64,000 nucleotides of DNA from Cellvibrio sp. (GCF_046347455.1 NZ_JAXMGC010000001.1:509241-573240), one strand, 5' to 3'. Counted from the stretch's first letter, positions 10,079 to 29,220 are shown. Program-made: numbers and translations. The notes: generated by a model from the sequence alone, not told the origin.

Positions 10079-10101
10079 GCACTTTGCGGAGGGAAATTTA
10101 G

Positions 10102-10515: not shown

Positions 10516-10528
10516 TCTGAAGGCAGAT

Positions 10529-10858: not shown

Positions 10859-11128
10859 AAATTATGCTGAATATATTTTTCAAACAGCTTTCATGGCGAT
10901 AAGCAAAATGCACTTTTTTTCACTAACAATAATTAATTAACGGTTTTTTCAATGAAACATTATTTGCCACTTATCGTCATTGCAATTGATTGATTTTCTA
11001 CAACGAATATTGCTTCGGGCGTCTTCAGTCAAAGACTAAGGTGCATGGACCAATCCTTGGCCCTTGTTGATTAGGTAGGTGCAAAAGGATTTCCGTTGAG
11101 CTCAAAGACTTCTAACTGGAGCCAGTTG

Positions 11129-11935: not shown

Positions 11936-12042
11936 GCAAAGCTCCTGTAAACTCTCCTAAAGTTGTTTTGAGCTTAGCACAAGATTCTAAAATCAAATTT
12001 ATCCGCTCTTTACAGTGAAAACAGTTCTAAAAATACAACTAT

Positions 12043-12471
12043 TTATCGCGATATATTTTTACCGTGAACACCATCTTTTTCTGAAAATTGCTCTTTATGG
12101 AAAGCCAATTTAACAGTTGCGCCTTGTGGAATTTCTGAGGGGAGATCTACTTTGAATTTAACGCCGGTTTGTACCCACTCATGATAAGCGTTGAGTGGTG
12201 GTCGATAAGTTCCAATAGCATCAAAAAGAAACGTTCCTGATGCATCATAAACACTGATATCAACGTGCCCTTTATCAAATTCAAGCTTACTAAATTTATG
12301 GAATAGAGAGCCTGATAAAGTTTCGTGACCATCCCGGTTAGATGCTATTAAGAACTTAAATTTAATATGATCTGTTTGTGCATTTAGTATTTCGTATTGA
12401 TAGTGTTGCTGCACACTAGCACATCCACTTACCCCTAGAATTACCGCGCTCAAAAAAATTTTTAGTTTCAT
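12043..12471 (-). CDS. lipoprotein, unknown function (weakly related to 17224-17622)
   Basis: Lipobox LGVSGC at residues 13-17. 142 aa. Confidence 0.6.
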   Translation of the reverse strand: MKLKIFLSAVILGVSGCASVQQHYQYEILNAQTDHIKFKFLIASNRDGHETLSGSLFHKFSKLEFDKGHVDISVYDASGTFLFDAIGTYRPPLNAYHEWVQTGVKFKVDLPSEIPQGATVKLAFHKEQFSEKDGVHGKNISR

Positions 12472-12647
12472 GTTAATTTCCTCTGCCGCTAGCGTGACGA
12501 TTTATCAATCTCATGAACTTAAATACAAAGGTGTGTAAATGTAGTTCTGCCAAAAAAGAATTGGATCGGTACAGAAGTTCAAAACACTTAGCTTAAACGT
12601 AATACATTTGGGTTTTGGAAGACCAAGTATTTAGCTAGCCGTAATAA

Positions 12648-12938
12648 TTAAATTGGCTTACCACAACCTGAACAAAACTTCGCTCCCGCTTGAACTTGAG
12701 AATTGCAGGATGCACAGATTTTTTCACCAAGACCGGTACCACATTGCTGGCAAAAGCGTGAATTGGGAGAGTTGATACTATTACACGAAGGGCAAGCGAC
12801 CCCATTTGGCCCTTGAGTGGTGGGCGGATAATTGGAGGGTCCATAATTGCCGCCATGATGCCCACGCCCATGAGATCCTCCATGACCACCACCGTGATGT
12901 CCACCTAAATTATTAAAAAGATTTTTAAAAAAACTCAT
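12648..12938 (-). CDS. Gly/His-rich double zinc-ribbon protein
   Basis: ATG 12938 follows a GAGG motif. N-terminus GGHHGGGHGGSHGRGHHGG, followed by two CxxC...CxxC ribbons (CPSCN..CQQCG and CASCN..CSGCG). Confidence 0.6.
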   Translation of the reverse strand: MSFFKNLFNNLGGHHGGGHGGSHGRGHHGGNYGPSNYPPTTQGPNGVACPSCNSINSPNSRFCQQCGTGLGEKICASCNSQVQAGAKFCSGCGKPI

Positions 12939-13001
12939 GAGATTGCCTCGTATTGGTTGAATGGCACATACCATCAATTTAAATAACATTTTTGTGAAAA
13001 T

Positions 13002-14378
13002 TTAGCTCGTTAAATGGCCTTTATTCATTACACCATCAAAATGTTCTGACGCAGAAAAAATTACCCACACAGTAAGCCCAGTTTTAGCTACTTCATCCGT
13101 ATATTTAATTTGAATATTTGCACGATTACGTATAACGATGTTCTTTACTATCGATAATCCCAATCCCGTACCAGTTTGCCCATTTCCAGGGATTCGGTAA
13201 TAAGGTTCAAACACCTTTTCTCGTTCTGTTTCAGCGATTCCAGGACCATTATCGCTAACTTCTATAATGTATTGGCCATACCAATAAAATATAGAAAGTT
13301 TAATTTTTCCATTTTGCGGAGTAAAACGGATTGCATTATCTACCAAGTTTTTTACTAAAAGCAGAAGGTCGAGTTCAGAAACATCTATTAAAATATCATC
13401 GTATCCAATCACACTAATCTTTATATTTTTTTCCTCTGCCAACGGAATCATGTCTTCAATAACCCTGCGAAATATTGACAATACCGCAACACTTTTGCCT
13501 TTTGGTTGGTCAGAATCATGAAGGCGAGCATAGGTTATGAGTTGATTTTGAAAATCTGAAGCGCGTTTTATTCTTGCCTTTAAAGAAATTACTTTTCTTT
13601 TAGATACCTCAGACAATTCTTCAGAATCTAAATGATCTACCTGAATCATCACGGAAGCTAAAGATGATCGCAACTCATGTGCAGCATCTGCCACAAATCG
13701 CCGTTGGGCGGAAATCGTATTGGAAACTTTCACCAATACTTGATTGACTGAATACACAAAGGGTCTGACCTCTTCAGGAACCTGGGTATCTACAATAGGT
13801 TTTACTCCTTTTTCCACACTGTCTCGCACATCATTTGCCATTTGCTTTATTGTTTTAAATCTTCCCTTAATGAAGACGTATAGGAAAAAGATCGAAAATG
13901 GCAACGCAGCGAGAACTGATAAAAAAGTCCGTATGGCCTCCCTAAAGGCAATTTTATGAATGAAATTTGCTTTTTGAAAAATGGCGAGTTTTATTTCAGG
14001 CGAAAATGTTTTCACATACATTCTGAAAGGTGTTCCATGGATTGTCAGTGCTTGAAGTCCATCAGAAAGGTTTGTGGGTAGGTAAGGTTCGGCTCGTTGA
14101 AACACTCGATTAGGGTCTAGCTGCTGAACAATTATTTTGTCATCAAGCTGTTCTCTAGCAACCTTTTTTAAAACTTCAGATGAGTCTTCTGTAATGCTTT
14201 TTGGATCTAATGATTGGGCAATATGTGTTAAATGATGATTTTGAGCTTCCAAGGCATTCTCAAGTTCTGCCGAATAAGACATATAAGCAGTCACTAGCGC
14301 TATCAACAAAATAATTGCTGACAAACATATAGCCAATTGATGATGAAGTGATTGTATTAAAAAAAATCGAAAATTCAT
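13002..14378 (-). CDS. two-component sensor histidine kinase with no adjacent response regulator
   Basis: Two TM segments flank a periplasmic loop. H-box AAHELRSSL, N box LVDNAIRFTP, G boxes DNGPGI and GTGLGLSIV. Confidence 0.85.
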   Translation of the reverse strand: MNFRFFLIQSLHHQLAICLSAIILLIALVTAYMSYSAELENALEAQNHHLTHIAQSLDPKSITEDSSEVLKKVAREQLDDKIIVQQLDPNRVFQRAEPYLPTNLSDGLQALTIHGTPFRMYVKTFSPEIKLAIFQKANFIHKIAFREAIRTFLSVLAALPFSIFFLYVFIKGRFKTIKQMANDVRDSVEKGVKPIVDTQVPEEVRPFVYSVNQVLVKVSNTISAQRRFVADAAHELRSSLASVMIQVDHLDSEELSEVSKRKVISLKARIKRASDFQNQLITYARLHDSDQPKGKSVAVLSIFRRVIEDMIPLAEEKNIKISVIGYDDILIDVSELDLLLLVKNLVDNAIRFTPQNGKIKLSIFYWYGQYIIEVSDNGPGIAETEREKVFEPYYRIPGNGQTGTGLGLSIVKNIVIRNRANIQIKYTDEVAKTGLTVWVIFSASEHFDGVMNKGHLTS

Positions 14379-14449
14379 GTTTATCTCTGCATGAAAATAA
14401 TTCGGTTGCTTACTGCTTAAAACGAAGGACTGTTCTTCATTGAAAATCG

Positions 14450-14845
14450 TTAATCGCCACGAATGGCTGTCTTTAAACTTTTAAATTCATCGTTTAAAAA
14501 TTCAAAGCTCGCTTGAAGAGCCAACGCGTTTTTCATATATTCGGCGTGCTCGATTTGATCCTCAACAGTATTTCCATCAATGGATGCCTGCTGTGGTGTG
14601 CGATACAACAGCTGACTCTCTGATCCACTTTCTGTTTCAATTTCAAAATGACGTGGATTGGTTTGGGCAGCAGACATTCTGCTTTCGACTTCCTGCCTGA
14701 GAATACTTTTAAAATCCAAATCTCTTGCTTTGAAATTGGGTGTATCAATATTGGCCAAATTATCGGCTAACACTGCCGCTCGCTGACCGCGCAAACGCAA
14801 CGCTCTTTCGTGCAACCCTAACGCTGATTCAAATGAAATTGTCAT
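14450..14845 (-). CDS. flgB: flagellar basal-body rod protein FlgB, full length and out of flagellar context
   Basis: The N-terminus (MTISFESALGLHERALRLRGQRAAVLADNLANIDTPNFKARD) and the C-terminus (DGNTVEDQIEHAEYMKNALALQASFEFLN) match the FlgB pattern. No flgC follows. Confidence 0.8.
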   Translation of the reverse strand: MTISFESALGLHERALRLRGQRAAVLADNLANIDTPNFKARDLDFKSILRQEVESRMSAAQTNPRHFEIETESGSESQLLYRTPQQASIDGNTVEDQIEHAEYMKNALALQASFEFLNDEFKSLKTAIRGD

Positions 14846-14875
14846 TTTAGTTATCCCATTAATTGGATAATTTAA

Positions 14876-15085
14876 TCAAAGCTTGTTAATACCATCCTGA
14901 GTTTTTTGCTCTACACGTTTTGCATGGTGATGATGGTGATGAGCCTTAGGGTCAGCGGTAATCACCCTGTATAGATCAATCAAAAACATACACAATAAAA
15001 CGGCGAGAACGAATAAAACGGGTTTGGTCTTAAATACGCTTTTTTCTACAGGCTTTGTAGATAATTTTTTTCGGGTGGATCTCAT
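14876..15085 (-). CDS. small single-TM protein with an HHHHHH tract
   Basis: 69-aa ORF between the ATPase and flgB on the same strand. It has a basic N-terminus, one hydrophobic helix, then PKAHHHHHHAK. Confidence 0.4.
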   Translation of the reverse strand: MRSTRKKLSTKPVEKSVFKTKPVLFVLAVLLCMFLIDLYRVITADPKAHHHHHHAKRVEQKTQDGINKL

Positions 15086-15163
15086 AAACTCAGCCTTAAC
15101 GCAGCAACTTCACGCACGTTATTGAAAGTTTTGTATGAGACATATCAGCACTAACGCCTTGAA

Positions 15164-17209
15164 CTAAAATCGCATCCGCTGAATGCGGACAGCGTTTATA
15201 ATTGCCAGAAGCGCAACGCCAACATCAGCAAATACCGCTTCCCACATAGTGGCTAAACCACCTGCACCTAAAATCAGGACGATTGCTTTTACCGCAAACG
15301 CTAAAATAATGTTTTGCCACACAATTTTTTTCGTTTGTTTCCCAATATTGATGGACATTGCAATTTTGCTCGGCCTATCGTCCTGAATAACTACGTCTGC
15401 TGTTTCAATGGTGGCGTCACTACCTAAGCCACCCATTGCAATACCGACATCACTCAGCGCGACTACGGGTGCATCATTGACACCATCACCTACAAATGCG
15501 ACGGTTTGGCTTTGCGATTTTGCCTCTTCAACTTTTTTAACTTTATCTTCCGGAAGCAAATCACCAAACGAATTTTCGATGCCTAATTTGTCTGCAACAA
15601 ATTTCACTACCGAACTTTTGTCGCCACTCAACATGGTTACTTTCACGCCCATGCCTTTTAATGCATCAATCGTTGCCTGCGCATCTTCTTTGATGCTATC
15701 TGCAATAGTTAGATAGCCTGCAAATTTTCTGTCGAAGGCGATGGCAATAGTTGTATAAACAATGGAGTTGGGATCAACATCGTAAGCAATATTGAATTTA
15801 TCAAGCAGCTTAAAATTCCCTACAAGGAGCTCTTTACCGTTAATGCTTGCTTTTAATCCGTGTCCTGATATTTCCTCAACATTTTGCAAATCGATACTGC
15901 TATCTATATCACCTACAAAATTATGAATAGCGGTCGCAACCGGGTGTGTGCTTTGGCTTTCTAATTTGTTCACCCATTTCAAAACATCGTCTTTGTTAAA
16001 GTTAGGTTTTAAATTAACGTCCTGAACTTTAAAAACACCTTCTGTCATGGTGCCGGTCTTATCCATAACCACATGCTTAATATCAGCAATAGTGTCCAGG
16101 AAATTACTGCCTTTAAATAAAATTCCATTTTTACTGGCCGCGCCTATGCCTCCGAAATATCCCAGGGGGATACTGATAACTAATGCACAAGGACAAGAGA
16201 TAACGAGAAAAATGAGTGCACGATACAACCACTGACTGAAGACATACTGATCTATAAAAAAGTACGGCAGCAGGCAAATTGCAAGCGCGAGCGCTACAAC
16301 AATAGGAGTATATATTTTTGCGAATTTTCGAATAAATAATTCTGTAGGCGCTTTCTGTGTGGAGGCGTTTTGTACCAGTTCAAGAATTTTAGATAGCTTA
16401 CTATCTTTATAATCCGCTGTGACCTTTACGAGCGACACCATATTTAAGTTAATCATTCCTGCAAGAACAGTTTCACCTTTTGTCTTGGCATCTGGTTTAC
16501 TTTCGCCCGTCAGGGCGGCAGTGTTGAAAGAAGCGGTTTCGGATAAAAGCTCTCCATCTAATCCCAGCTTTTCACCCGCCTTCAGTTGGATTTTATCGCC
16601 GATTTTTACATCTTCTGCCCGGCGTACAACTGCTTGGTTATTTTCTAAAATGGTGACTTCATCAGGACGTTGATCAAGTAAGGTTTTAATATTTAATTTT
16701 GCGCGCTTCACGGCGAGTGTTTGGAATACCTCACCCACCGAATAAAACAGCATCACCGCAACACCTTCAGGATATTGACCAATGGCAAATGCCCCTAGGG
16801 TTGCAATACTCATAAGTAGAAATTCAGAAAACACTTCTCCGTTGCGAATACTTTCAATGGCTTCCTTCAACACCGGCAAACCAACAGGCAAATAAGCGGC
16901 TAGATACCAAATAACGCGCAGCCAGCCCGTAAACCAGGATTGATTCACATAGCTATCAAGAATCAGAGCAACAATAAGTGTTATAAAACTTATTGCCGGA
17001 AATACGAACATACTTGCAGTGCTGTCATTTCCACCTGAATGATCATGTCCGTCATCATGCGAATGCTCATGATCGTGATCATGGCTATCACCCTTGGATG
17101 ATTCATTTTCGTGCTTTTTTATAGACACATTTGCATGATGATTAATTTTCTCTTCTTCTGTACAACAAATCTGTTTACCGTTACGATCATAAATATGCTG
17201 ATGTTCCAC
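15164..17209 (-). CDS. heavy-metal translocating P1B-type ATPase (Zn/Cd/Pb-type, CPC motif, His-rich N-terminus)
   Basis: DKTGT, SCPCALV and VGDGVNDAP motifs. The N-terminus is HDHDHEHSHDDGHDH rather than a CxxC HMA domain. Confidence 0.9.
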   Translation of the reverse strand: MEHQHIYDRNGKQICCTEEEKINHHANVSIKKHENESSKGDSHDHDHEHSHDDGHDHSGGNDSTASMFVFPAISFITLIVALILDSYVNQSWFTGWLRVIWYLAAYLPVGLPVLKEAIESIRNGEVFSEFLLMSIATLGAFAIGQYPEGVAVMLFYSVGEVFQTLAVKRAKLNIKTLLDQRPDEVTILENNQAVVRRAEDVKIGDKIQLKAGEKLGLDGELLSETASFNTAALTGESKPDAKTKGETVLAGMINLNMVSLVKVTADYKDSKLSKILELVQNASTQKAPTELFIRKFAKIYTPIVVALALAICLLPYFFIDQYVFSQWLYRALIFLVISCPCALVISIPLGYFGGIGAASKNGILFKGSNFLDTIADIKHVVMDKTGTMTEGVFKVQDVNLKPNFNKDDVLKWVNKLESQSTHPVATAIHNFVGDIDSSIDLQNVEEISGHGLKASINGKELLVGNFKLLDKFNIAYDVDPNSIVYTTIAIAFDRKFAGYLTIADSIKEDAQATIDALKGMGVKVTMLSGDKSSVVKFVADKLGIENSFGDLLPEDKVKKVEEAKSQSQTVAFVGDGVNDAPVVALSDVGIAMGGLGSDATIETADVVIQDDRPSKIAMSINIGKQTKKIVWQNIILAFAVKAIVLILGAGGLATMWEAVFADVGVALLAIINAVRIQRMRF

Positions 17210-17223
17210 TTTACGCTCCTTAC

Positions 17224-17622
17224 TTATATGCTATTTTCGTGGTAGCTAAATTGAATGTGTAACGGTTGCGGCTCTATACCATCAATTTTCACTGAGAAGA
17301 GACCTGTACGATTCTCCTTTGGCCTTAAATACAATTCACGAGGCGAGTACTCTGGGGATACAGCTTTCAAGACAACGTTTTGTTGATTAGTTATCAAAAT
17401 ATTAATATGGCCACTGGCCACATGTCCTGCAATTCTGGCTAACTGAATTCCACCCTCAATAAGTAAAGTGTTCTTATCAAAGCTTACTTTTGAGTAAGTC
17501 AGATTCAAATTGTGATTTTTAAAATCATCTGCGTAGATCGTGTGATACGAAGGTGTTGATGCGCATCCAGTTATCAAAATTAACAAGATGCCAATGCCCG
17601 CACTACGAATTAAGAGCTTCAT
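17224..17622 (-). CDS. lipoprotein, unknown function (weakly related to 12043-12471)
   Basis: ATG 17622 follows an AGGAG motif. Lipobox LITGC. The 17688 start in the ORF track overlaps the PII-like gene. Confidence 0.6.
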   Translation of the reverse strand: MKLLIRSAGIGILLILITGCASTPSYHTIYADDFKNHNLNLTYSKVSFDKNTLLIEGGIQLARIAGHVASGHINILITNQQNVVLKAVSPEYSPRELYLRPKENRTGLFSVKIDGIEPQPLHIQFSYHENSI

Positions 17623-17630
17623 AGGGGCTC

Positions 17631-17951
17631 CTATAGCAACGGACCGCCAATGGGTAACGCTTGCTCTATGGCGCTGACATACACCCAACCAGAAATTTCC
17701 TCACCGATTTTTCCAGCATCGCGAATAGTCGTTGTGATGCTTTCAACTTCAGCGTCATTACACGCAATGGATAGTTTCGCTTCTGAAATGACTAACCTTG
17801 CTTCTGCCGAATAAACTCTTTCGAATTCATCGAGTGGTGACAATGTGCCTCGAACGTCTTGCAGAATGAGATTTCGATAACCCGCATCGTTTAATGCGTC
17901 AACAACATTGTTGACTCTTACATGGTGTAAAAATGCTGTAATTAATTTCAT
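17631..17951 (-). CDS. PII-like (GlnB-superfamily) small signalling protein linked to RND efflux genes
   Basis: 106 aa. MKLITAFLHHVRVNNVVDALNDAGYRNLILQDVRG follows the PII beta-alpha-beta start. It lies 60 nt downstream of czcA. Confidence 0.6.
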   Translation of the reverse strand: MKLITAFLHHVRVNNVVDALNDAGYRNLILQDVRGTLSPLDEFERVYSAEARLVISEAKLSIACNDAEVESITTTIRDAGKIGEEISGWVYVSAIEQALPIGGPLL

Positions 17952-18010
17952 GATGTATCACCTCATAAGACAGCTGTTTACGAATCGATAAACAGCTGTC
18001 GTTGCGTTAA

Positions 18011-21000
18011 TTAAGATTTACTTACTGGTCGAAATGCCATGCGATAAAGCCCTGGCAATACAAGCAATGTCAGTAACGTTGAAGAGATGATTCCACCAAT
18101 AACCACTGTGGCGAGAGGTCGTTGAACTTCCGCACCAGTACCGGTATTGAGCGCCATTGGAAGGAAGCCTAGTGCAGCAACCAATGCAACCATCAGGATG
18201 GGGCGTAAACGCATCATTGCGCCTTCACTAATAGCGACATCAATCGATTTGCCTTCCTTTAAACCATCACGGAATGCAGACACCATCATCACGCCGGTTA
18301 GTACCGCGACACCCGATAGAGTGATGAACCCAACACCTGCGGTAATGGACAATGGAATGCCACAAATCCAAAGTGATATCACGCCTCCGGTAAGTGCAAG
18401 CGGTACTCCGCTAAATACAAGGAGCGCATCTTTTGCTGAACCGAAGGTCATCATTAACAGCGCGAAGATTGCGAGTAATGTAATTGGAACCAGAACACTC
18501 AAACGTTTGGATGCAGATTGCAATTGCTCAAACGTGCCGCCGTAACGAACCCAATAACCTGGTGGAAGTTTTACTTGCTGTTCAACTTTCTGTTGAACCT
18601 CAGCAACAAAACCTCCAAGGTCACGATCTTTTACGTTCGCACTTACCACTAAGCGACGCTTGCCATTTTCACGACTGATTTGGTTTGCACCAGGAGCAAT
18701 TTTTAACTTCGCGACTTCACCTAGCGGAACATAACCACCATCCGCTAATGGAATAGGAAGACGTGAAAGTGCAGTCAAATCATTGCGAAGTTTTTCAGGC
18801 AATCGAACAACGAGATCGAAACGCTTATCGCCATCAAATATTTGCCCAGCCTCTTCACCGCCAGTCGCGATGGATAACGTTTGTTGAACATCTGTCATAT
18901 TCAATCCGTACCGTAAAAGCGCAGGACGAATTGCTTCAACAGAGAGAATGGGCAAGCCATCCACTTGCTCAACCTTCACACTATCGGCACCTTTAATGCC
19001 ATTCAGCACACTCGCAATTTGATTACCAGAAGCGAGTAGCTGCTCAAGATCTTCACCGTAGATTTTGATACCCAGATCAGAACGTACACCTGAAATCAAT
19101 TCGTTAAAGCGAAGTTGGATAGGCTGGCTAATTTCGTAAGCATTACCTGGAACCAACGCGAGTTTCGATTCGATATCCTCAAGTACTTCAGCTTTAGTAC
19201 GATGAGGTGTGGGCCACTCTTTTTTATCTTTCAGCATGACATAACCGTCAGAAATGTTTGGCCCCATTGGATCGCTAGCAACTTCAGCGGTACCTACACG
19301 AGAGAAAAACGTTTTTACCTCAGGCACTTTCATAACAGCACTTTCAACTTGAAATTGCATATCAAGGGATTGCGTCAAACTTGTACCTGGAATACGTAAC
19401 GCTTGAACAGCGACATCGCCTTCATCCAAATTCGGAATAAATTCTGTTCCCATGCGGGTAGCAATGAATCCCGAAATCAAAACGAAAACAACGGCGCCCG
19501 CTAAAATTGGTTTGCGTAAACGCAACGCAAAATCGAGTACGCCGGTATATCCCTGCTTGGCTTTACGAACAATAATATTTTCCTTTTCTTCGATATGACC
19601 TGATAACAAAAGAGCAACAGCAGCAGGAACAAACGTTAACGACAAAATCAGCGCTGCGATCAGTGCCATGATGACGGTCATGGCCATAGGCGAAAACATT
19701 TTTCCTTCAACACCGGTCAATGCAAGAATTGGAAGGTTCACAAGAATTACAACCAAAACACTGATTAAACTTGGCGTGAACACTTCGCGAGTTGCACTGA
19801 ATACAATTTGAAAACGTTCATCCAAATTTAAATTGCGACCCAAATGATGTTGTCGTCCCGCGAGGCGAAAAATACAGTTTTCAACAATGATCACCGCACC
19901 ATCGACAATCAAACCAAAATCCAATGCACCTAAACTCATCAGGTTTGCGCTGACTTTTGTTTGAACCATGCCAGTCATTAACATCAACATAGAAAGTGGG
20001 ATAACCATTGCTGTGAGTAAAGCGGCACGCACATTTCCAAGCATTACCAACAACACAACTACAACCAGGATTGCACCTTCGAGCAAATTCTTTTGAACAG
20101 TTGCAATGGTTTTGTTAACCAAAATAGTTCTGTTGTAGACAGGCTCGGCAGTCACACCTTCTGGCAACGTTTTATTAATCTCAGTAATTTTGGCAGACAC
20201 AGCTTCAGACACTGTTCGGCTATTTCCACCAAGCAACATCACTGCTGTACCTAGCACAGTTTCCGCACCGTCTCTGGTTGCAGCACCTGTACGTAATTGC
20301 TTACCAAAACTTACGTCCGCCACATCGCGAATAGTCACCGGTAATTTGCCGCGATGAGCAAGAATAATTTGCTCAATCGAAGGGATATCGCTGACCTGGC
20401 CTGGAGCACGTATTAAGTATTGCTCGCCATTTTTTTCGATATAGCCAGCACCAACGCTCACGTTGTTTTTCTTCAATGCTTCTACAACATTTTCAAATGT
20501 AATTCCGTAAGCCAACAACTTCGCTGGATTAGGGGTGATGTGAAATTGTTTTTCGAAGCCGCCAATCGTGTTGATTTCTGTCACGCCTGGCACTAAACGC
20601 AATTGCGGACGAATCACCCAATCTTGCAATGTACGCAACGCGGTTGCATCGTAAGGTTGACCATTCGCTTGGCGTGCTTTGCTATCGGCATGTACAGCGT
20701 AATGAAAGATCTCACCCAAGCCGGTTGCCACTGGCCCCATACCAGGCTCAATACCTTGAGGCATTTGGCTTTTCGCTTGCTGCAAACGCTCGTTGATAAG
20801 ATTGCGCGCAAAATAAATATCGGTTCCGTCTTTAAACACAACCGTTACTTGCGACAATGCATAACGAGACAATGAACGTGTCTCTTCAACGTTAGGCAAA
20901 CCTGCAATAGCAACTTCAACCAAATAAGTAATACGTTGCTCAACTTCCAATGGAGAATATCCAGGAGCAGCTGTATTGATTTGCACCTGCACGTTAGTGA

Positions 21001-21124
21001 TGTCGGGAACAGCATCAATTGGAAGACGTTGGTAATTCCATACACCAACACCTGCTACAACCAACACTAAAAACAATACTAACCAACGGCGAGAAATGGA
21101 AAATTTTAGAAGTGCATCAATCAT
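18011..21124 (-). CDS. czcA: heavy-metal efflux RND pump, CzcA family
   Basis: 1037 aa with 12-TM RND topology and the HME-type motif DFGLIVDGAVIIVEN. Confidence 0.9.
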   Translation of the reverse strand: MIDALLKFSISRRWLVLFLVLVVAGVGVWNYQRLPIDAVPDITNVQVQINTAAPGYSPLEVEQRITYLVEVAIAGLPNVEETRSLSRYALSQVTVVFKDGTDIYFARNLINERLQQAKSQMPQGIEPGMGPVATGLGEIFHYAVHADSKARQANGQPYDATALRTLQDWVIRPQLRLVPGVTEINTIGGFEKQFHITPNPAKLLAYGITFENVVEALKKNNVSVGAGYIEKNGEQYLIRAPGQVSDIPSIEQIILAHRGKLPVTIRDVADVSFGKQLRTGAATRDGAETVLGTAVMLLGGNSRTVSEAVSAKITEINKTLPEGVTAEPVYNRTILVNKTIATVQKNLLEGAILVVVVLLVMLGNVRAALLTAMVIPLSMLMLMTGMVQTKVSANLMSLGALDFGLIVDGAVIIVENCIFRLAGRQHHLGRNLNLDERFQIVFSATREVFTPSLISVLVVILVNLPILALTGVEGKMFSPMAMTVIMALIAALILSLTFVPAAVALLLSGHIEEKENIIVRKAKQGYTGVLDFALRLRKPILAGAVVFVLISGFIATRMGTEFIPNLDEGDVAVQALRIPGTSLTQSLDMQFQVESAVMKVPEVKTFFSRVGTAEVASDPMGPNISDGYVMLKDKKEWPTPHRTKAEVLEDIESKLALVPGNAYEISQPIQLRFNELISGVRSDLGIKIYGEDLEQLLASGNQIASVLNGIKGADSVKVEQVDGLPILSVEAIRPALLRYGLNMTDVQQTLSIATGGEEAGQIFDGDKRFDLVVRLPEKLRNDLTALSRLPIPLADGGYVPLGEVAKLKIAPGANQISRENGKRRLVVSANVKDRDLGGFVAEVQQKVEQQVKLPPGYWVRYGGTFEQLQSASKRLSVLVPITLLAIFALLMMTFGSAKDALLVFSGVPLALTGGVISLWICGIPLSITAGVGFITLSGVAVLTGVMMVSAFRDGLKEGKSIDVAISEGAMMRLRPILMVALVAALGFLPMALNTGTGAEVQRPLATVVIGGIISSTLLTLLVLPGLYRMAFRPVSKS

Positions 21125-21181
21125 GACGTCACCTCCTTGTTAACCATATTTTTCCGGAAGGAAAGAATACTAATGCAGAAA

Positions 21182-22153
21182 TTATTCATGTTCAGCACCG
21201 TCCTTTCCTAATTCAGCTTTGATGATGAAACTGTTTTTGCTGGCATAGGTTTCACCCGCTTTAACACCACCGAGAACTTCGCTGACCTCACCATCTGTAC
21301 GGCCCACTTTTACTGGGCGCGGCTCAAAGCCTTTTTGTCCCTTAACAAATACAACTTGCTTACCTTCGTGATCTTGTAAAGCCTCATTACGAATCGTTAA
21401 AGCAGCAGTTTTTTTTGCAAGCACGACATCAGCATTCACGAAAAGACCCGGTGTCCATTCATGCTCAGCATTCGCTAATAACACGCGAGCAGTTAAGGAT
21501 TGATTTGTACTGGAACCTAGGGCCGACACTGAAATAATTTCGCCTTCGCCAGTAAGGTCACTTGATGGATTGGTAACTTTTACGGTTTGTCCAACACGAA
21601 TTTTTGCAGCATCGCGAGGGAAAATTGCAACATCCACCCAAACACTCGAAAGGTCTGCAATGACAAATACTGTTTTATCCGTAGTTTGCTCACCAACGTT
21701 AATATGTCGTTCTGCAATGACACCACTGATCGCTGACGTAATCGAATAGGTTTTTAAGCTCTCGTTACTTTCAACGGTTGCTAAGACTTCACCTTCTCTT
21801 ACAGCGTCGCCAACTTTTTTATTCACGGTGCGCACAGTGCCAACAAAACGTGCTGCAACACGTTGAATTTTTTCACCATTAGCATCGACCGTACCGTAAA
21901 GCGAAATCGTTTCACGAATGTCGGCAGGTCCAACTTGCGCAAGACCAATTGCCGCTGTTTTCAATTGCTCATTTGTTAAGGCTGCGGCTTTTTCTTCATG
22001 TTCTTCCGCTTGTTCCTGCTTAGCAGAACCTTTTGGTTCTTCTTTGGCTGCATTTGCCAATGAAATACCAATTAACGCAACGCTCAAAAATCCTATTTGC
22101 AAAAGATTCTTTGTAGATAATTTTTTTTGTACAACTTTTAAAAATGATTTCAT
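21182..22153 (-). CDS. czcB: RND efflux periplasmic adaptor (CzcB-like membrane fusion protein)
   Basis: Signal/anchor sequence followed by lipoyl and beta-barrel-like repeats. It sits between the TolC-like and CzcA genes, and its start overlaps the czcC stop. Confidence 0.8.
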   Translation of the reverse strand: MKSFLKVVQKKLSTKNLLQIGFLSVALIGISLANAAKEEPKGSAKQEQAEEHEEKAAALTNEQLKTAAIGLAQVGPADIRETISLYGTVDANGEKIQRVAARFVGTVRTVNKKVGDAVREGEVLATVESNESLKTYSITSAISGVIAERHINVGEQTTDKTVFVIADLSSVWVDVAIFPRDAAKIRVGQTVKVTNPSSDLTGEGEIISVSALGSSTNQSLTARVLLANAEHEWTPGLFVNADVVLAKKTAALTIRNEALQDHEGKQVVFVKGQKGFEPRPVKVGRTDGEVSEVLGGVKAGETYASKNSFIIKAELGKDGAEHE

Positions 22154-23463
22154 GGATTAACCCCGGAATTTTGTGCGGTGGTGGCAGTGCCACTGAGACG
22201 TTCAATTTCAGCGCGCAGCAAATGCGCATTTGCCGCTGCATCAATTAATGCAGATTCGGCTTCTAACAATTCACGCTGGGCAGTACTAAGTTCGAGATAG
22301 CCATAGCGACCTTTGTCGAATGCTGCTCGTGTACCGCTCACCGCTTTTTTTAATTGGGGAATAACATCGTTGCGTAAGCTTTTGATTTCAAAAAGTGCAG
22401 CCTGACGCTCCTGGTAAAGACCTGCCAATTGCGCGCGCATTTGAAGCAATGCCACTTCACGCTCGTTATCAACACTTAAACGATTTGCTCTTGCGGTCGC
22501 GACTTCGCCCGCTGCTCGACTGCTTCCAAAAAGAGGGACGGTAACGCCAACAACGACAGCTGAATCTTTGCTGGCTTGCAGGCGACGTACACCTGCATTC
22601 CATTCAAGATCTGCCTTACGCTGACTGAGAGCCAAACGAACTTCCGCGTCTCTCAAACGTGCTTCGTTTGCAAAGAGCAGAATGTCAGGACTATCCGAAA
22701 GTTGAGTCAGAAGTTCGTTAAGAGGGAGAGAATCACCAGTACTGAGAAGATCGGCATTTACCGAGGTGAAAGTTGGTTCAGTAGTACCCCACATAGCAGA
22801 CAATTTGATTCGTGCAGCATCGAAATTTAACTCCGCCTGCTTTAACTCAATGGCTGTGCGAGATTGGTTGGCTTGGGCACGCGCTAGCTCCGCATCAGGA
22901 GTATTCCCTGCATCTACTCGACGCTTGATTGATGCAGTTGTCTCAGTAGCAAGCGAAAGTGTGGATTGGCGTAAACCGAGCTGCTGCTGTGCGGTGGCAA
23001 CATCAATAAAACGGCGTGTTACCTCTGACAGCAAATCCAATTCGATAATGCGTTGCTGAACCGCCAAGCCTTGCTGGCGCTCAGTAACGACACCCATACG
23101 AGCTTCACGTTTATCACCCAGCTCAATAATTGATGACAAGGCAAGCGTGACTTCGGCACTTTTGGTTCCGGAGTAATCACCGGTTCCGGCAGCGTTTTCA
23201 ACCGTTGCACCAACCCGTAAAGCGGGTCTCAAGGCTGCGGTTTGAAGCTCTCCCTCAAGGGCTTGTCTGCGAAATTGGAAACTACTGAGTTGAGGGTTTT
23301 GGGCGAGAGTTGCCGTGACAGCATCCCGCAAAGATAACTTACTGCCTGAGGCAGTCTTGGTATCAGCCGTTGTTTGGGCTGAAACTTGAATAGCAGACGA
23401 ACAGAATAACAAGGTCGCTATCAGCGCGAACCTGATTCGAAAAAGGGACATAATGAACTCCAA
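22150..23463 (-). CDS. czcC: TolC-family outer-membrane factor (CzcC-like)
   Basis: Signal peptide and duplicated long coiled-coil repeats typical of OMFs. 4-nt overlap with czcB. Confidence 0.8.
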   Translation of the reverse strand: MEFIMSLFRIRFALIATLLFCSSAIQVSAQTTADTKTASGSKLSLRDAVTATLAQNPQLSSFQFRRQALEGELQTAALRPALRVGATVENAAGTGDYSGTKSAEVTLALSSIIELGDKREARMGVVTERQQGLAVQQRIIELDLLSEVTRRFIDVATAQQQLGLRQSTLSLATETTASIKRRVDAGNTPDAELARAQANQSRTAIELKQAELNFDAARIKLSAMWGTTEPTFTSVNADLLSTGDSLPLNELLTQLSDSPDILLFANEARLRDAEVRLALSQRKADLEWNAGVRRLQASKDSAVVVGVTVPLFGSSRAAGEVATARANRLSVDNEREVALLQMRAQLAGLYQERQAALFEIKSLRNDVIPQLKKAVSGTRAAFDKGRYGYLELSTAQRELLEAESALIDAAANAHLLRAEIERLSGTATTAQNSGVNP

Positions 23464-23539: not shown

Positions 23540-23926
23540 TTAGTGGGAGTTTTTAGGTGGAGCGCGAAGCGGCGGGCGTAAGCCTGTTACGGTCAGCCAA
23601 GCTGAGGGCGTATTGGAAAGATTGTAGTGTTGACCACGGATAACGGGCCATACAAATACAAGAAATAACGCTAGTGCCAGAAAGGGTAAATCGAGGTTGA
23701 ATACCTTGATCGCGCTGGCCTGGGCAGGGTTATTATCAACATCGATATGCACTTTGCCCAAGGCATTGTGATCAACATCTGGACCATCTACAACATCAAA
23801 ATGAACCGATACTGGAGGCTCACCACCGTCAAAGCAATAGTGCCCGTGCATCCCGGTCAAACTGGCGATAAACCAGATGAGCAATGCGATATAGGCATAT
23901 TTTTTGTGATGGACCAGTTTTTTCAA
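23540..23926 (-). CDS. His-rich membrane protein, first gene of the czc-like operon
   Basis: 128 aa with an N-terminal TM, HGHYCFDGGEPPVSVHFD and DVDHNALGKVHIDVD segments, and a second TM. Confidence 0.45.
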   Translation of the reverse strand: MKKLVHHKKYAYIALLIWFIASLTGMHGHYCFDGGEPPVSVHFDVVDGPDVDHNALGKVHIDVDNNPAQASAIKVFNLDLPFLALALFLVFVWPVIRGQHYNLSNTPSAWLTVTGLRPPLRAPPKNSH

Positions 23927-24242
23927 GTCAGCGTCTCAAATGGGGTTAGTACAAAAACCAACCATATCCTTTTTAAACGATAGTCATTTTTTGTCAGAAA
24001 GACAATCCGTTTTGAGAGAAATACCTGATTTAATCTAAATTTGGGAGAAATTAGATCGATTAAAATTTATCAGCTTTACAACGCAAAACTTCTGTTAAGT
24101 AAAGTTTTACGCAGTTATCGGTTACCACCTCGCCTCCAATCTCGCCAGATTGGTGCAACCTCGGCATAAAAATCATCTTTTTTTGAACAGAACGATTGAA
24201 ATTCGACCAGAAGATCCCATATGTCGTTAAACGCATCACAAA

Positions 24243-25349
24243 ATGGATCAATTGATGAATGAAAAACAGCCTTTTCGGGTCTTATGTCTTGACGGTGGAG
24301 GAATGCGCGGTGTTTACCAGTCCGCGTATTTAAACACTTTCGCATCAAGACTTGCTGGTTTAGATGGTGGAAAAACAATAGACGTTGGCAAGAGCTTTGA
24401 TCTCATTGTAGGAACAAGTACAGGAGGAATAGTTGCCTGCGCGTTGGCCGCTGGAGTGCCATTACAGCAGGTTCGTGATCTTTATTACAAAGAAGGTCAT
24501 AAAATTTTCCCCCATCAATTTATTCGCCATATTCCATTACTTGGAAGCCTTGCTATAAGAGGGCTTGGCATTGGTTTATCCGCAGGTAATGACGCTCTGA
24601 AAGCTGCGCTTAATACTGCTTTTAATACTCAAACAGTTGATGAAGTCTATAAAAAACGAGGAATCGCATTTGCAATTCCTACATTAGATATCAATAGACA
24701 TTCTGCCGTCGTTTTTAAAACCCACCACCTATCTCGTTTAAATGGACGTGATAACTCCCGAACATTAGTCGATGTTTGTCTTGCAACCTCAGCAGCACCA
24801 ATGCTTCGCTCTATGGCCAAACTCATCGAACCTAGTAGTGCAGGAACGTCAACAACCGCTGTGTACATAGACGGCGGATTATGGGCAAACAATCCAGGCG
24901 CTCTTGGAATGATTGAAGCGTGTGAAATTCTTCAAGATAGAAACGAAGTTCGACCTATCCATTTATTTATGTTGGGATCTTTACCCTCCCAAGGAGGCGA
25001 AGAAATTTCCGATGCAAAACTACATCGAAATTCGTTTGGTTGGGGAGTAGGTATAAAAGCTATTGAAGCAAGTCTTAATGCTCAAGCTGTTGGCTATGAT
25101 TATATTTCATCGAAAATTGCATCACTTCGAAACGATGGAAGCTTTGCATATCGAATGCCCGCGCAATGCCCCTCAAATGAACTTAGAAACTATTTAAAAA
25201 ATTTAGATGACGCACGACATAAAGCACTGAATGCGCTGGAACGTCAAGCAATATCCGATGTGGATTGGGCTTGGGCGCAAATGAATACTACAAATCCCAC
25301 GAATCGCATGCAGTCTTTCAGGGATGCATTGATGACTACACTTAATTAA
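24243..25349 (+). CDS. capV: CBASS effector: patatin-like phospholipase (CapV-like)
   Basis: Oxyanion motif DGGGMRG, nucleophile elbow GTSTGG, and catalytic Asp in [11 protein letters not shown]. Confidence 0.85.
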
Positions 25350-25362
25350 ACAAAGAGGACTG

Positions 25363-26412
25363 ATGCAAATGGCAGAGATAGATTGTAATAAAGACTTACG
25401 CGCTTACCACAATGAAAAAGTTACATTGGGTAAATCCGATCAAGATACGATGCGTAGTCGTCGCGATTCTGGCCGCACACGTTTACGAAATGGTTTAACC
25501 AGACTAGAGAAACCAGTACCAGAAAAAATTGAATCTCAAGGCTCCTACAGCATGAAAACCATGGTGCAGGATGACGCATGTGAATATGACATTGATGATG
25601 GGGTTTACTTCAAACCCGAAGATCTCACGTGGCTAGTTGTTTTTGAGCTATCACCCGCAGATGCACGTGCTCGTGTTTGTGAAGCACTGTCGGATGATGA
25701 GCGTTTGAAAAGTCCCGCTGAAGTGAAACGAAATTGTGTGCGCCAAACTTATCCGCAGGGTTACCATATCGACTATCCCGTTTACCGAATCAAAACAGAA
25801 ACAAACAGCGATGGAAATGAAGAAGAATATTTTGAATTAGCAAGCGGTGATGACTGGGTTCGATCAGATGCACGAGCAGTTACGAGTTGGTTTAATGGTC
25901 ACGTGACCAACCTTAATTCCGGTGAGGTTAATGACGGTAGCCAACTACGTCGAGTTGTAAGATACACAAAAAAGTTTGCACGTAGCGTAGCTGACTGGAA
26001 AGAAAAAACAGCATCAGGCATAACTATTACAAAGTTAGTTGTTGATTATTTCCAGTCGAGCGATGGCAGAGATGATCTTGCTATTCGAAATACTTGGAAA
26101 GCCATAAAGAAAGCTTTAGATGCTTCCACTGAAGTAAATCATCCCGTATTAAAAGACACAAAACTATCAGGAAAAGATGATGACGCAGTAACTTTTTTCA
26201 AAGATAAATTAGCTTGGGCACTCAAAGAACTCAATGTGCTCGATGAAAAGGATTGTTCGCATAAAAATGCGTTAGAAGCCTGGGATATAGTTTTTAGTGC
26301 TTCTTTTTTTGCAGCACGAGCTACAGAAGATACCAAGTCTCAGAAGTCAGCTTTTGTGGTAACACCCTCAAAAGTTTCAGAGCGTAATGATGATGGTGGT
26401 CGATTCGGTTAA
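25363..26412 (+). CDS. CBASS cGAS/DncV-like nucleotidyltransferase (CD-NTase)
   Basis: Pol-beta NTase signature QGSYSMKT...EYDIDDG with a later HIDYP acidic site. The C-terminus ends GGRFG. It lies between the patatin and Cap2 genes. Confidence 0.8.
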   Translation: MQMAEIDCNKDLRAYHNEKVTLGKSDQDTMRSRRDSGRTRLRNGLTRLEKPVPEKIESQGSYSMKTMVQDDACEYDIDDGVYFKPEDLTWLVVFELSPADARARVCEALSDDERLKSPAEVKRNCVRQTYPQGYHIDYPVYRIKTETNSDGNEEEYFELASGDDWVRSDARAVTSWFNGHVTNLNSGEVNDGSQLRRVVRYTKKFARSVADWKEKTASGITITKLVVDYFQSSDGRDDLAIRNTWKAIKKALDASTEVNHPVLKDTKLSGKDDDAVTFFKDKLAWALKELNVLDEKDCSHKNALEAWDIVFSASFFAARATEDTKSQKSAFVVTPSKVSERNDDGGRFG

Positions 26413-28118
26413 TGAATCCAAGTCAATCACTGCTCGTACAAAATATTGGAGCTGTTTTAAATAGCCAATTACCGGCGCGTTGGTCATTAGTTCCTACAAC
26501 CAACGCGCCCAGTATTAAACGGTCTTTAAATCTGCTTGCGGCAATATGGCGTGTCGAGTTTATTGAGGGTGATATTACATACCCAAATGTTACCCATCTT
26601 TTTGTTGCTATCGACAATCAGTATCCTAGAACTCAGCCAATAATATGGCTGCCTCAATATGTGCATGGGAAAAGTAAACGTTGGCCGCACATCGATATTT
26701 ATGGAAATCTTTGTCTTCCTAAATCATCTATGGCAGACGATCCTGCTCAGCGAGTTATTCAGCATCTTGCGTGGGCACAAAGCTTGTTAAACATGGATCC
26801 CATTAATAGACGCAAGGATTTTGCGAGAGAAGCTGCTGCTTATTGGGATCAAGCTCACGATAACAAAGAAAAAATTTATAGCCTGCTCTCTCTTAATGCA
26901 GAAAGCCGTTTAATCGTTTACTCAGTAGATAATCATCAAACTTTTTTTGCTGCAGATACCCCTGAAGAGCTTACTCAATACTTAAAAAATCTTCGTAGTA
27001 CCGAGAAATCAGCACAAATTTATCCAGGTTACCTATTATGGTTGGATAGTCCTTGGCTCCCGGATGAATTTCCCGTATTTGGTAGCGATCTATTAAATTT
27101 AATTCCTAAAAATATATTAGATCAAATACTGGTGGCCGGAAGAGACTGCTTAATTGTTATAGGGGCAAAAACTGACAATGGAATTATTTTTTTGGCATCG
27201 TTATTAAGAAGTCAAAAACTATCGGAAGCCATGCGAGGTTTTAGAACAACCTCAAAACTTCCTACTATGCTTGTCCATAAAGCTTTTACTACAAAAAAAA
27301 TTCTTAAAGCCAATGTGTCTAGAATTGATGGAGCTTGGGTGCATGGACGAGATCATGATCCAAACTATGAAACTTTACATCACAAAAAAGTGGTGATATG
27401 CGGATGCGGTTCGTTAGGTGCATCGGTAGCCCGGTTACTAGCGCAAGCTGGGGTGGGTACAATTCATTTAATCGATAATGATACAGTTGCATCTCATAAT
27501 GCATCGCGTCATATATTAGGCGTGGGAAGCTCTGGTGCGAGCAAAGTAACATCACTACGAAAACTTTTGCTTGCTGATTTTCCTCACATGTTAGAAGTTA
27601 CTGCACATCATAAAAAATTTGAAACATTAACGCAGCAAGAATTGGAGCTGATACAAGGTGCCGATGTAATTGTGAGCGCCGGTATCGATATTTCAGGGGA
27701 CTTATTTTTGGATGAATGGAGAAGAACTCACAGCAATGAATCAGTACATGTTTGCGCATGGGCAGAAGCTTTTGCCGTTGCAGGACACGCCGTCGCCTTA
27801 TTTAATGACGATAGTGTGAGCGCTATGTTTGATGAAAATATGGAGATTATTTTTAGGTCATGCGACGTTCCCGAAAGCGCGAACCATTTAGTTGCTATGG
27901 CAGGTTGTGGTGATGTATTTCAGCCACATGGTGCTATCGAACTTCAGTCAACCGTCAATATTGCAGCTCGAATTGTTATTGATATCCTTATGAATAAAGT
28001 TGCAAATTCAACGCGACGAACTTGGTTTGGAAATCGAGATGAAGCATTGCAGCGTAATCTAATACCTAGAGCAGACTTTAATGATGATTCATGTATTAAA
28101 GACTTTCCATGGCACTAA
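26412..28118 (+). CDS. cap2: CBASS Cap2: E2-like plus E1 (ThiF/UBA-like) fusion
   Basis: The ATG overlaps the CD-NTase stop (TAATG). N-terminal E2-like HIDIYGNLCLP. E1 Rossmann motif ICGCGSLGASVARLLAQAGVGTIHLIDND. Confidence 0.85.
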   Translation: MNPSQSLLVQNIGAVLNSQLPARWSLVPTTNAPSIKRSLNLLAAIWRVEFIEGDITYPNVTHLFVAIDNQYPRTQPIIWLPQYVHGKSKRWPHIDIYGNLCLPKSSMADDPAQRVIQHLAWAQSLLNMDPINRRKDFAREAAAYWDQAHDNKEKIYSLLSLNAESRLIVYSVDNHQTFFAADTPEELTQYLKNLRSTEKSAQIYPGYLLWLDSPWLPDEFPVFGSDLLNLIPKNILDQILVAGRDCLIVIGAKTDNGIIFLASLLRSQKLSEAMRGFRTTSKLPTMLVHKAFTTKKILKANVSRIDGAWVHGRDHDPNYETLHHKKVVICGCGSLGASVARLLAQAGVGTIHLIDNDTVASHNASRHILGVGSSGASKVTSLRKLLLADFPHMLEVTAHHKKFETLTQQELELIQGADVIVSAGIDISGDLFLDEWRRTHSNESVHVCAWAEAFAVAGHAVALFNDDSVSAMFDENMEIIFRSCDVPESANHLVAMAGCGDVFQPHGAIELQSTVNIAARIVIDILMNKVANSTRRTWFGNRDEALQRNLIPRADFNDDSCIKDFPWH

Positions 28119-28141
28119 AACTATGGAGTTAACCATTATTT

Positions 28142-28615
28142 ATGTTGGAGCTTAAAGCGGTAAATAGTAGCTTTACACAAAGTGTGTCAATACAAGCACA
28201 AGTTATTAAGTATCTTTCACAACATCGTCAATTACATGCAAGAAGTTTGGAGGCTGGTGGGCAATTATTTGGAGTCGTAGATCCAGATTCAATTATTATT
28301 ACCTGTGCTACAGGTCCTTACTCAAAAGACGACCGCGGTCCACGTCACTATAGATCTGATGCGATGAGCGCTCAGTCTGAAATTAAGCAACAAGCAAAAT
28401 TTGGTAATGTGTATTTAGGTGAGTGGCATACCCATGCCGAAAAAGTACCTAGAGCTTCTGGGCACGATATTGATGCAATGAGACGATTAATGAAGAGTTC
28501 CAATCTCGCCACAAATGGTTTGTTGATGGTTATTTTAGGTCAGGGATTGGATAAGGGGGGAATAAGTGTTTACTCGTACATGGATGGAAAGCTTCTCCAT
28601 TGGGATATTGAGTAA
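28142..28615 (+). CDS. cap3: CBASS Cap3: JAB/JAMM isopeptidase
   Basis: Upstream Glu (LEAGGQLFG) and an exact JAMM motif H-x-H-x7-S-x2-D in WHTHAEKVPRASGHD. Confidence 0.85.
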   Translation: MLELKAVNSSFTQSVSIQAQVIKYLSQHRQLHARSLEAGGQLFGVVDPDSIIITCATGPYSKDDRGPRHYRSDAMSAQSEIKQQAKFGNVYLGEWHTHAEKVPRASGHDIDAMRRLMKSSNLATNGLLMVILGQGLDKGGISVYSYMDGKLLHWDIE

Positions 28616-28932
28616 TCATTGCGAAAGCTTGCATATGGCTAATTTAAAAGCTATTAGATAGCTAAGTAATCAAAATTATTTATGGCATATATCTAGTGCT
28701 TCAAAAATATTATAACACCACATGTTGTGCCCAAAGGATACTTCCAATATAGTGCCTATCAAAGCGGATACTTTAGTCAAAAATATTAATGAAAAAATAT
28801 TCAATGTATACGCTATATGATTTAGAGGCAGCTTTATTACTCACATTATATTGATTTATAAGGACATTTTATAATGTATACGGATTTGCGTTAGATATAA
28901 TGCCAGTAAAGTTCTTGCATAGCCCAGCAGCA
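28616..28932. repeat. ORF-free AT-rich island tail containing several short repeat families
   Basis: TCAAAAATATTA occurs twice (28701-28712, 28777-28788). GTGCC..AAAG(C)GGATACTT occurs twice (28727-28743, 28752-28773). AATGTATACG occurs twice (28803-28812, 28873-28882). Confidence 0.6.
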
Positions 28933-28942
28933 AGATGATAAA

Positions 28943-28971
28943 GGCGACTTTCGAGTCGCCTTTTTTATTTT
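28943..28971 (+). terminator. rho-independent terminator, probably the displaced nrdA terminator
   Basis: Stem GGCGACT, loop TTCG, stem AGTCGCC, followed by TTTTTTATTTT. Confidence 0.6.
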
Positions 28972-29090: not shown

Positions 29091-29118
29091 TTGACGCCGC
29101 AAAACTCGTTGATATAAT
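29091..29118 (+). promoter_or_regulatory. sigma70-type promoter for tRNA-Leu
   Basis: TTGACG (29091-29096), a 16-nt spacer, and TATAAT (29113-29118), ending 15 nt upstream of the tRNA 5' end. Confidence 0.6.
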
Positions 29119-29133: not shown

Positions 29134-29220
29134 GCCAGTGTGGCGGAATTGGTAGACGCACCGGATTCAAAATCCGGCGCCCTTAAAAGCGTGTCGGTTC
29201 GAGTCCGACCACTGGTACCA
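29134..29220 (+). tRNA. tRNA-Leu (anticodon CAA)
   Basis: 87 nt. Acceptor GCCAGTG/CACTGGT with encoded CCA. Anticodon stem CCGGA/TCCGG with loop TTCAAAA. Long variable arm. T-arm GTTCGAGTC. Confidence 0.9.

Follow-up and report, generated by a model that had tools for sequence, protein, structure and literature searches.

A complete type II CBASS operon with a clade-B-like cyclase, carried as the last cargo of a three-integrase genomic island in Cellvibrio

Do the four genes that close the cargo of a metal-resistance island in Cellvibrio sp. encode a complete anti-phage system, which signal would such a system use and what kind of element carries it? The locus occupies positions 24243-28615 of a 64,000-nucleotide stretch (GCF_046347455.1, NZ_JAXMGC010000001.1:509241-573240; the whole stretch is hereafter called the window), and an original prediction had described it as a type II operon of the cyclic-oligonucleotide-based antiphage signalling system (CBASS). 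We find that the four genes form a complete, intact type II CBASS and conclude that the operon is very probably a type II-A CBASS abortive-infection system, riding as the last cargo of a GInt (a genomic island bearing three integrases) that targets the gene for the large subunit of ribonucleotide reductase (RNR).

All four open reading frames (ORFs) lie on the plus strand at exactly the coordinates first proposed: a capV-like gene for a patatin phospholipase effector (24243-25349, 368 aa), a gene for a clade-B-like cGAS/DncV-like nucleotidyltransferase (CD-NTase, here the cyclase; 25363-26412, 349 aa), cap2 for an E2-linker-E1 fusion (26412-28118, 568 aa) and cap3 for a JAB/JAMM isopeptidase (28142-28615, 157 aa). 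Their spacing is that of a single operon, with 13 bp and an AGAGGA ribosome-binding site (RBS) between capV and the cyclase gene, a TAATG in which the stop of the cyclase gene overlaps the start of cap2, and 23 bp with a GGAG RBS between cap2 and cap3. All four proteins match CBASS models in PADLOC (6e-45 to 4.3e-137), the effector as phospholipase (PDLC00758, 1.7e-90), the cyclase as PDLC00783 (8.4e-132), Cap2 as E1-E2 over residues 13-545 (PDLC00836, 4.3e-137) and Cap3 as JAB (PDLC00888, 6e-45). Pfam likewise detects Patatin in the lipase (6.9e-23), DncV-like_NTFase (PF21654) in the cyclase, Prok-JAB in Cap3 and, in Cap2, ThiF (3e-19) together with a sub-threshold Prok-E2_B (1.7e-4), so that the second gene is assigned to the CD-NTases by two profile libraries. 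The four gene assignments and the type II class of the original prediction were thus upheld by PADLOC, Pfam, orthologs and structure prediction, and its statement that this is a described system family also holds, type II-A CBASS being already well characterised.

A regular-expression check of the catalytic motifs, run on the window and on orthologs of Cellvibrio, of Luteibacter and of a contig from a wastewater metagenome, found each motif listed in the original prediction, and each is conserved. The lipase carries G18GGMRG23, G57TS59TG61 and D210GG, conserved in five orthologs, with S59/D210 as the predicted catalytic dyad and R22 within the oxyanion/phosphate motif G18GGMRG23, while G60-S61, D76-I-D78 and D137 of the cyclase are invariant in a 32-member family alignment. 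The four-gene order recurs in Cellvibrio, Luteibacter, the wastewater contig (ENA ERZ965287), a contig of NCBI assembly GCA_000390105.1 and Klebsiella plasmid loci. Comparison with the Cellvibrio orthologs gave non-synonymous divergence (pN) of 0.13-0.31 and a saturated synonymous divergence (pS) of 0.74-0.83 (pN/pS ~0.17-0.41), and because pS is saturated while pN stays that low, all four genes are evidently under purifying selection and are not chance ORFs. The type II-A CBASS of Vibrio cholerae VSP-1, Escherichia coli TW11681 and Pseudomonas aeruginosa BWHPSA011 (CapV-CdnA-Cap2-Cap3) share with the window the four functions and their order, and also the tight coupling, the S/D dyad, the GS/DxD/D residues, both catalytic cysteines of Cap2 (E2 and E1), the JAMM site of Cap3 and a conserved, glycine-ending tail on the cyclase.

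The locus had been likened to the V. cholerae capV-dncV-cap2-cap3 arrangement, and this likeness holds for architecture and gene order but does not extend to the cyclase as an ortholog of DncV. We rejected DncV orthology since the cyclase reaches 123.1 bits against the NCBIfam cGAS equivalog NF041078, below its cut-off of 150, and since two clade-B enzymes outrank DncV, which comes third whether sequence, profile or fold is compared. The best match in the Protein Data Bank (PDB) is 7LJO (74 bits with phmmer, 94 bits with the family profile), which two papers give as Bacteroides fragilis CdnB (BfCdnB) of clade B04 (CdnB04); next come the 8YS-series entries, named by Foldseek as Deinococcus wulumuqiensis DwCdnB (43-53 bits), and then DncV of clade A01 (29-43 bits), clades C, D, E and G being undetectable by sequence in the PDB. 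The ranking was the same when an AlphaFold (AF2) model of the cyclase (predicted local distance difference test, pLDDT, 80.6) was used in Foldseek: 7LJO (E 4e-17, TMt 0.84), DwCdnB (~1e-12), DncV (~1e-10) and CdnC/G/D (~1e-8). Because 7LJO and then DwCdnB rank best by phmmer, profile and Foldseek, we call the cyclase clade-B-like, a label set by its nearest solved relatives rather than by a full CD-NTase reference phylogeny. It shares with BfCdnB and DwCdnB the catalytic core and a compact size of ~340-350 aa, it lacks the AGS-C Ig-like fusion carried by many type I clade-B enzymes, and it is ~90 residues shorter than DncV, to which it is 16-20% identical by structural alignment. Its subfamily comprises 802 proteins at E <= 1e-5, of which the top 120 share 54-90% identity with the query and are, with few exceptions, ~345-350 aa long. 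Copies occur in P. aeruginosa assemblies, and 93 Klebsiella plasmids carry one under generic RefSeq names only. A look-up by accession (WP_002708884, KSS23980, WP_015632530) found no published clade assignment, and no experimentally characterised member of the subfamily was identified here. We regard it as doubtful, albeit conceivable, that this widespread cyclase subfamily, paired with a CapV lipase, differs from the DncV/CdnD systems studied so far in its second messenger or in the target of Cap2 conjugation.

Signal identity is not readable from sequence, but the effector offers a hint. By bit score the lipase lies far nearer to cGAMP-activated CapVs (9WN1/9KH6/9KH7, ~93 bits; Acinetobacter baumannii AbCapV, 8ZR9, only 63 bits) than to a cUMP-AMP-activated patatin lipase (9IOM, 39 bits), and it reaches 189.6 bits against the NCBIfam model CBASS_lipase (NF041079), narrowly under the cut-off of 200. 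AbCapV (8ZR9/9JEH), which forms filaments upon activation by 3',3'-cyclic GMP-AMP (3',3'-cGAMP), shares with the window protein the patatin fold, the S/D dyad and an arginine (R21, equivalent to R22). F147, K149, D159 and E207 are the residues that read 3',3'-cGAMP in its filament (PMC12480259), and three of these four base-reading residues are conserved by alignment, K149, D159 and E207 corresponding to K159, D170 and E225, while F147 aligns with V157 and the C-terminal third (R279, E328, T331, K332) is unaligned, so that R279, a further cGAMP contact of AbCapV, falls outside the alignment. We take a purine cyclic dinucleotide to be the probable signal, and since three of the four AbCapV residues are retained we favour 3',3'-cGAMP, with a confidence only slightly above even.

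The alternative that survives best is a CBASS by descent that uses a signal other than 3',3'-cGAMP (c-di-GMP, 3',2'-cGAMP, a dinucleotide with a pyrimidine or a trinucleotide, for instance) together with a co-evolved CapV pocket. It would fit a cyclase that is clade-B-like rather than DncV-like and that stays under the cut-off of the cGAMP-synthase equivalog, the citation of CdnB among cGG producers in one paper, the valine at the position of F147 and the presence in the PDB of a patatin (9IOM) activated by cUMP-AMP. However, the effector scores 93 and 63 bits against cGAMP-activated CapVs and 39 bits against the cUMP-AMP-activated lipase, the conserved K149, D159 and E207 are the adenine and guanine readers of AbCapV, and 9KH7, described as a 'cGAMP-activated phospholipase', likewise has a residue other than Phe at the F147 position. 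We therefore consider a different nucleotide possible but unlikely, and retain 3',3'-cGAMP as the favoured candidate.

A type II system also requires the parts for conjugating its cyclase, and these are present. The C-terminus of the cyclase, R341-x-D343-x-G345-x-R347-F348-G349 (...GGRFG), is invariant in the 32 aligned members and G349 is the last residue, while residues 323-349 have pLDDT <50 in the AF2 model, indicating disorder, and the linker varies across the family. Ledvina et al. found that the conserved tail of type II cyclases is the Cap2 substrate; the Enterobacter cloacae CdnD peptide that is adenylated in the Cap2 E1 site ends in ...TGRFA, and V. cholerae DncV with a mutated terminal glycine no longer confers defence. 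By analogy, the tail of the window cyclase is the expected Cap2 substrate. In Cap2, the only cysteines invariant in six orthologs are C101 in G-x-L-C-L of the E2 hairpin, C332 in the G-C-G of the Rossmann motif (G331CGSLG336) and C499 in A-G-C-G-x-x-F-Q-P of the E1 crossover loop, and in E. cloacae Cap2 the counterparts of C101 and C499 are C109 and C548, in agreement with the E2-like Cys region and E1 Rossmann motif first reported. Cap3 has E37 and H96THAEKVPRASGHD109, the exact HxHx7Sx2D (with H98 and S106) that had been claimed as a JAMM motif, and both elements are conserved in five orthologs; it matches the NCBIfam Cap3 model at 1e-15, under the cut-off, and PDB 9ILD at 6.8e-12. Because the tail, the Cap2 cysteines and the Cap3 motif are all present, a complete Cap2/Cap3 regulatory cycle is encoded here, and it would presumably operate as in the characterised systems.

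Taken with the characterised homologs, these features suggest the following scheme. The clade-B-like CD-NTase would act as both phage sensor and synthase, and upon infection would synthesise a cyclic oligonucleotide, for which purine cyclic dinucleotides such as 3',3'-cGAMP are the likeliest candidates. The product would bind the CapV-type patatin lipase (S59/D210), probably assembling it into filaments, and the activated lipase would hydrolyse membrane phospholipids so that phage production stops. Cap2 is predicted to adenylate the invariant C-terminal glycine of the cyclase (...GGRFG-COOH) and to pass the cyclase via Cys499 (E1) and Cys101 (E2) onto a target, thereby priming it, whereas Cap3, through its JAMM site, would strip the conjugate and restrain signalling. 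The cassette as a whole moves as a unit and here rides a GInt.

The carrier is recognisable from its first genes. Bardaji et al. (2017) defined GInts, the Tn6571 family, as islands with a ginABCD operon, a cargo of 2.5 to >70 kb and, at the 3' end, a short stretch rich in AT, and reported that GinC is frequently annotated as hypothetical. At the left of the window lie, all on the plus strand, two ORFs for tyrosine recombinases, ginA-like (1144-2412, likely true start ATG 1172; PF00589 1.1e-11, phrog_1 integrase) and ginB-like (2409-3848; PF00589 3.3e-10, NCBIfam site-specific integrase NF041502 8.9e-70), followed by a ginC-like ORF (3845-5878, 677 aa) and a small ORF (5929-6321, 130 aa) that matches GinD in position and size. 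Gene for gene, they are 37, 48, 47 and 58% identical to Pseudomonas counterparts, the ginD-like product matching a 135-aa ORF after the Pseudomonas trio at E 1.6e-52. The 677-aa protein has no match in Pfam, NCBIfam, PADLOC, PHROGs or PDB sequences; in its family alignment R235, K266, R470, W490 and Y502 are invariant and H467 nearly so, a residue set that we read as the tyrosine-recombinase hexad, and the top ~36 Foldseek matches of its AlphaFold model (pLDDT 80.6) are Cre, XerH, Tn1549 Int, XerA and XerD, at weak E values of ~1e-3. These family residues and this fold identify it as a divergent, GinC-like tyrosine recombinase. Across the GinC-like family a Cys/His cluster (C564, H566, C573, C579, C582) that lies C-terminal to the recombinase core is invariant, which suggests an extra zinc-binding domain.

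With its ginABCD genes, variable cargo, AT-rich 3' end and position after an RNR large-subunit gene, the element is, on the features that define the type, a GInt of ~27.8 kb spanning ~1107-28885, so that the three-integrase island of the original prediction acquires a name and its AT-rich tail becomes the canonical 3' end, with the CBASS as the last cargo before it. It differs from described GInts in its cargo of Czc-type efflux genes, a P-type ATPase, a helicase module and CBASS. Its left end (1107-1172) holds two CGTATAC(ATT) motifs (GTATAC at 1113-1118 and 1162-1167) between the RNR stop and ginA, and its 3' end (28616-28885, ~31% GC) holds two AATGTATACG motifs (GTATAC at 28806-28811 and 28876-28881), the right-end AATGTATACG being the inverse of the left-end CGTATACATT. 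Of six GTATAC sites in the whole 64-kb window, four thus fall at the two island ends, and CGTATACATT also occurs twice between the RNR stop and ginA in Pseudomonas loci (L013-L015), whose right ends have AATGTATACG once, beside a related GCGTATACTTT. We propose the CGTATACATT/AATGTATACG terminal motifs as candidate recombinase-binding sites, an argument that rests on position and on recurrence across genera; local alignment of the two ends for terminal inverted repeats scored 25 versus 19.6 +/- 2.6 for shuffles (maximum 33), which is not significant alone.

The target site follows from the left junction. The left flank is the C-terminus of the RNR large subunit (stop at 1038), 74% identical to Pseudomonas NrdA through the last residue, and the Pseudomonas loci (L013-L015, 7160-13480) consist of nrdA, the recombinase trio, the 135-aa ORF, ~1 kb and nrdB, with almost no cargo. 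Because the island starts right after the RNR stop both here and in these loci, its insertion is evidently site-specific and falls at the 3' end of the gene for the RNR large subunit, as Bardaji et al. reported for P. aeruginosa GInts, which sit at the end of the RNR alpha-subunit gene. GInts as a type are further known for high insertion-site specificity, imperfect flanking direct repeats of 10-11 nt (attL/attR) and a circular intermediate on excision that requires all four gin genes. Beyond the right end a terminator hairpin (28940-28963), probably the displaced RNR terminator, precedes a complete tRNA-Leu(CAA) gene (29134-29220; ARAGORN, Rfam 58.9 bits) with a near-consensus sigma-70 promoter (29091-29118, TTGACG-16-TATAAT, TG extended). 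This tRNA was considered as the integration site and rejected, since it is complete, has its own promoter and lies past the hairpin, the recombinases are at the far end and the Pseudomonas relatives of the element target the RNR gene.

Within the island the CBASS cassette is a module of its own. Nucleotide similarity (blastn) to the Cellvibrio cassettes is confined to 24179-28522, beginning at a conserved 5' leader (24179-24242, plus strand), and no flanking protein is shared with the Cellvibrio loci. Because the similarity is limited in this way and the flanks are not shared, the four genes evidently travel as a unit between unrelated contexts. The Klebsiella IncF-type plasmid NZ_CP069844.1 (WP_015632529-WP_015632531, WP_032433950) encodes a cyclase of the same subfamily (~52% identity) in the same four-gene order, there on a plasmid and here on a GInt. 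Identical DNA is found in several contigs derived from the Sequence Read Archive (SRA), one of which keeps the czc-CBASS-flhB context, and a search for phage carriage gave one distant Enterococcus phage match only (31% identity). A P. aeruginosa cluster at 56% identity was considered as the Pa011 system and rejected: the Cap3 of Pa011 is only 33% identical to that of the window, and the numbering of its catalytic residues differs.

Protein identity to the Cellvibrio orthologs drops along the operon, from 78-81% for CapV and 73-76% for the cyclase to 61-65% for Cap2 and 55-62% for Cap3. In more distant loci Cap2 is the least conserved (27-36%, versus 36-45% for Cap3), and the regulatory Cap2/Cap3 pair diverges faster than effector and cyclase in both near and distant comparisons.

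This mobility raises the question of whom the cassette serves. It might mainly serve the mobile element, stabilising it by addiction or fighting off competing elements and so keeping the GInt and its metal-resistance cargo in the population: a toxic effector stands at the very end of a mobile island, Klebsiella plasmids that are conjugative or mobilizable commonly carry the cyclase subfamily beside replication and stability genes, and the cassette moves independently of its flanks. Yet an antitoxin-like logic is not known for CBASS, characterised type II-A systems protect their native hosts from phage, and it is ordinary for GInts and other islands to have defence systems among their cargo, so that we judge a primarily element-serving role improbable and keep to a type II-A CBASS directed against phage.

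Several observations nevertheless weigh against that reading. What the analysis shows is the gene content with its motifs and their conservation, the fold, the nearness to a clade, the type of island and its target site; that the system acts against phage, runs the conjugation cycle, activates its lipase in filaments and uses a particular nucleotide is transferred from characterised homologs. The effector, the cyclase and Cap3 all miss their NCBIfam equivalog cut-offs, NCBIfam yielded no Cap2-specific equivalog model for comparison, and because the three proteins fall below these cut-offs their specificities may differ from those of the characterised DncV/CapV pair. To this may be added the nearest-relative basis of the clade label, with an identity to the clade-B structures of only ~22-24%, and, in the effector, the valine at the F147 position and the unaligned R279. 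At the island ends, local alignment of the junctions gave no convincing att direct repeats, and an exact look-up with FlhB for an empty site returned only an occupied site, in another SRA sample. Finally, a promoter scan upstream of the CBASS genes found nothing above chance, a weak sigma-70-like site at 24012-24041 (plus strand) matching 9 of 12 positions. That the operon is intact in sequence yet silent or non-functional, a recently acquired passenger, would fit this absence of a clear promoter, the GC content below that of the core and the identity of the copies in other samples, which makes selection within the lineage not measurable, but it is very unlikely given that the catalytic residues and the conjugation tail are all intact, that purifying selection is strong across genera, that the translational coupling signals are preserved and that gin operons are reported to read through into cargo (Bardaji et al. 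2017).

Defence cargo on GInts has been reported, and type II-A CBASS and GInts are both described; what the window adds is a cleanly delimited complete type II-A CBASS as GInt cargo beside heavy-metal efflux genes. Since the CBASS shares its GInt with metal efflux, phage defence could be co-selected and co-transferred with metal resistance, and if the subfamily did use a different messenger or target, its residence in an RNR-targeting GInt would link that form of phage defence to metal co-selection. The analysis also flags a large subfamily of clade-B-like cyclases, partnered with CapV and present on clinical Klebsiella plasmids as well. Neither point changes the current understanding of CBASS or of GInts.

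The cargo extends over ~6.3-28.6 kb (~22 kb), with the CBASS as its last block, and the GC content is 0.39-0.43 in the island, 0.306 in the tail (28616-28935) and 0.46-0.48 in the core, the right flank being the core flagellar regulon. A PADLOC search of the cargo for other defence systems gave weak matches only and no recognised system. Beside the gin operon, 6686-9599 encodes a 183-aa ORF, a ResIII/Helicase_C helicase (weak PADLOC match to PbeA, 1.9e-07), a DUF6957 protein and a DEDDh-like exonuclease (PADLOC 2e-07, phrog_192), a cluster that could be an unrecognised defence or DNA-processing module. The metal-resistance block (10102-23463) encodes MerR, YnfA/UPF0060, a zinc-ribbon protein, a histidine kinase and a P-type ATPase, along with an efflux set made up of a Czc-type resistance-nodulation-division (RND) pump of 1037 aa, a CzcB-like membrane fusion protein (MFP) and an OEP outer-membrane factor. 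Between the gene for this last factor and the CBASS lies a 128-aa ORF on the minus strand (23540-23926) that has no match in any library searched and shows hydrophobic stretches by eye; an ORF of equal length occupies the corresponding position in a second sample (L006).

Three further observations concern neighbouring genes. In the core flagellar/regulatory region of the window a 672-aa ORF (50135-52153, plus strand) has no Pfam match at E <= 1e-5. On the Klebsiella plasmid NZ_CP069844.1 (L010) the orthologous CBASS is followed by a gene for a NACHT-domain protein (9192-10984), possibly an AVAST/NLR-like defence gene, and the two form a small defence cluster beside repE/stbA. Within the island cargo, a 131-aa ORF on the minus strand (14450-14845) gives a weak N-terminal match to Flg_bb_rod (9.9e-07), which is odd for a metal-resistance region.

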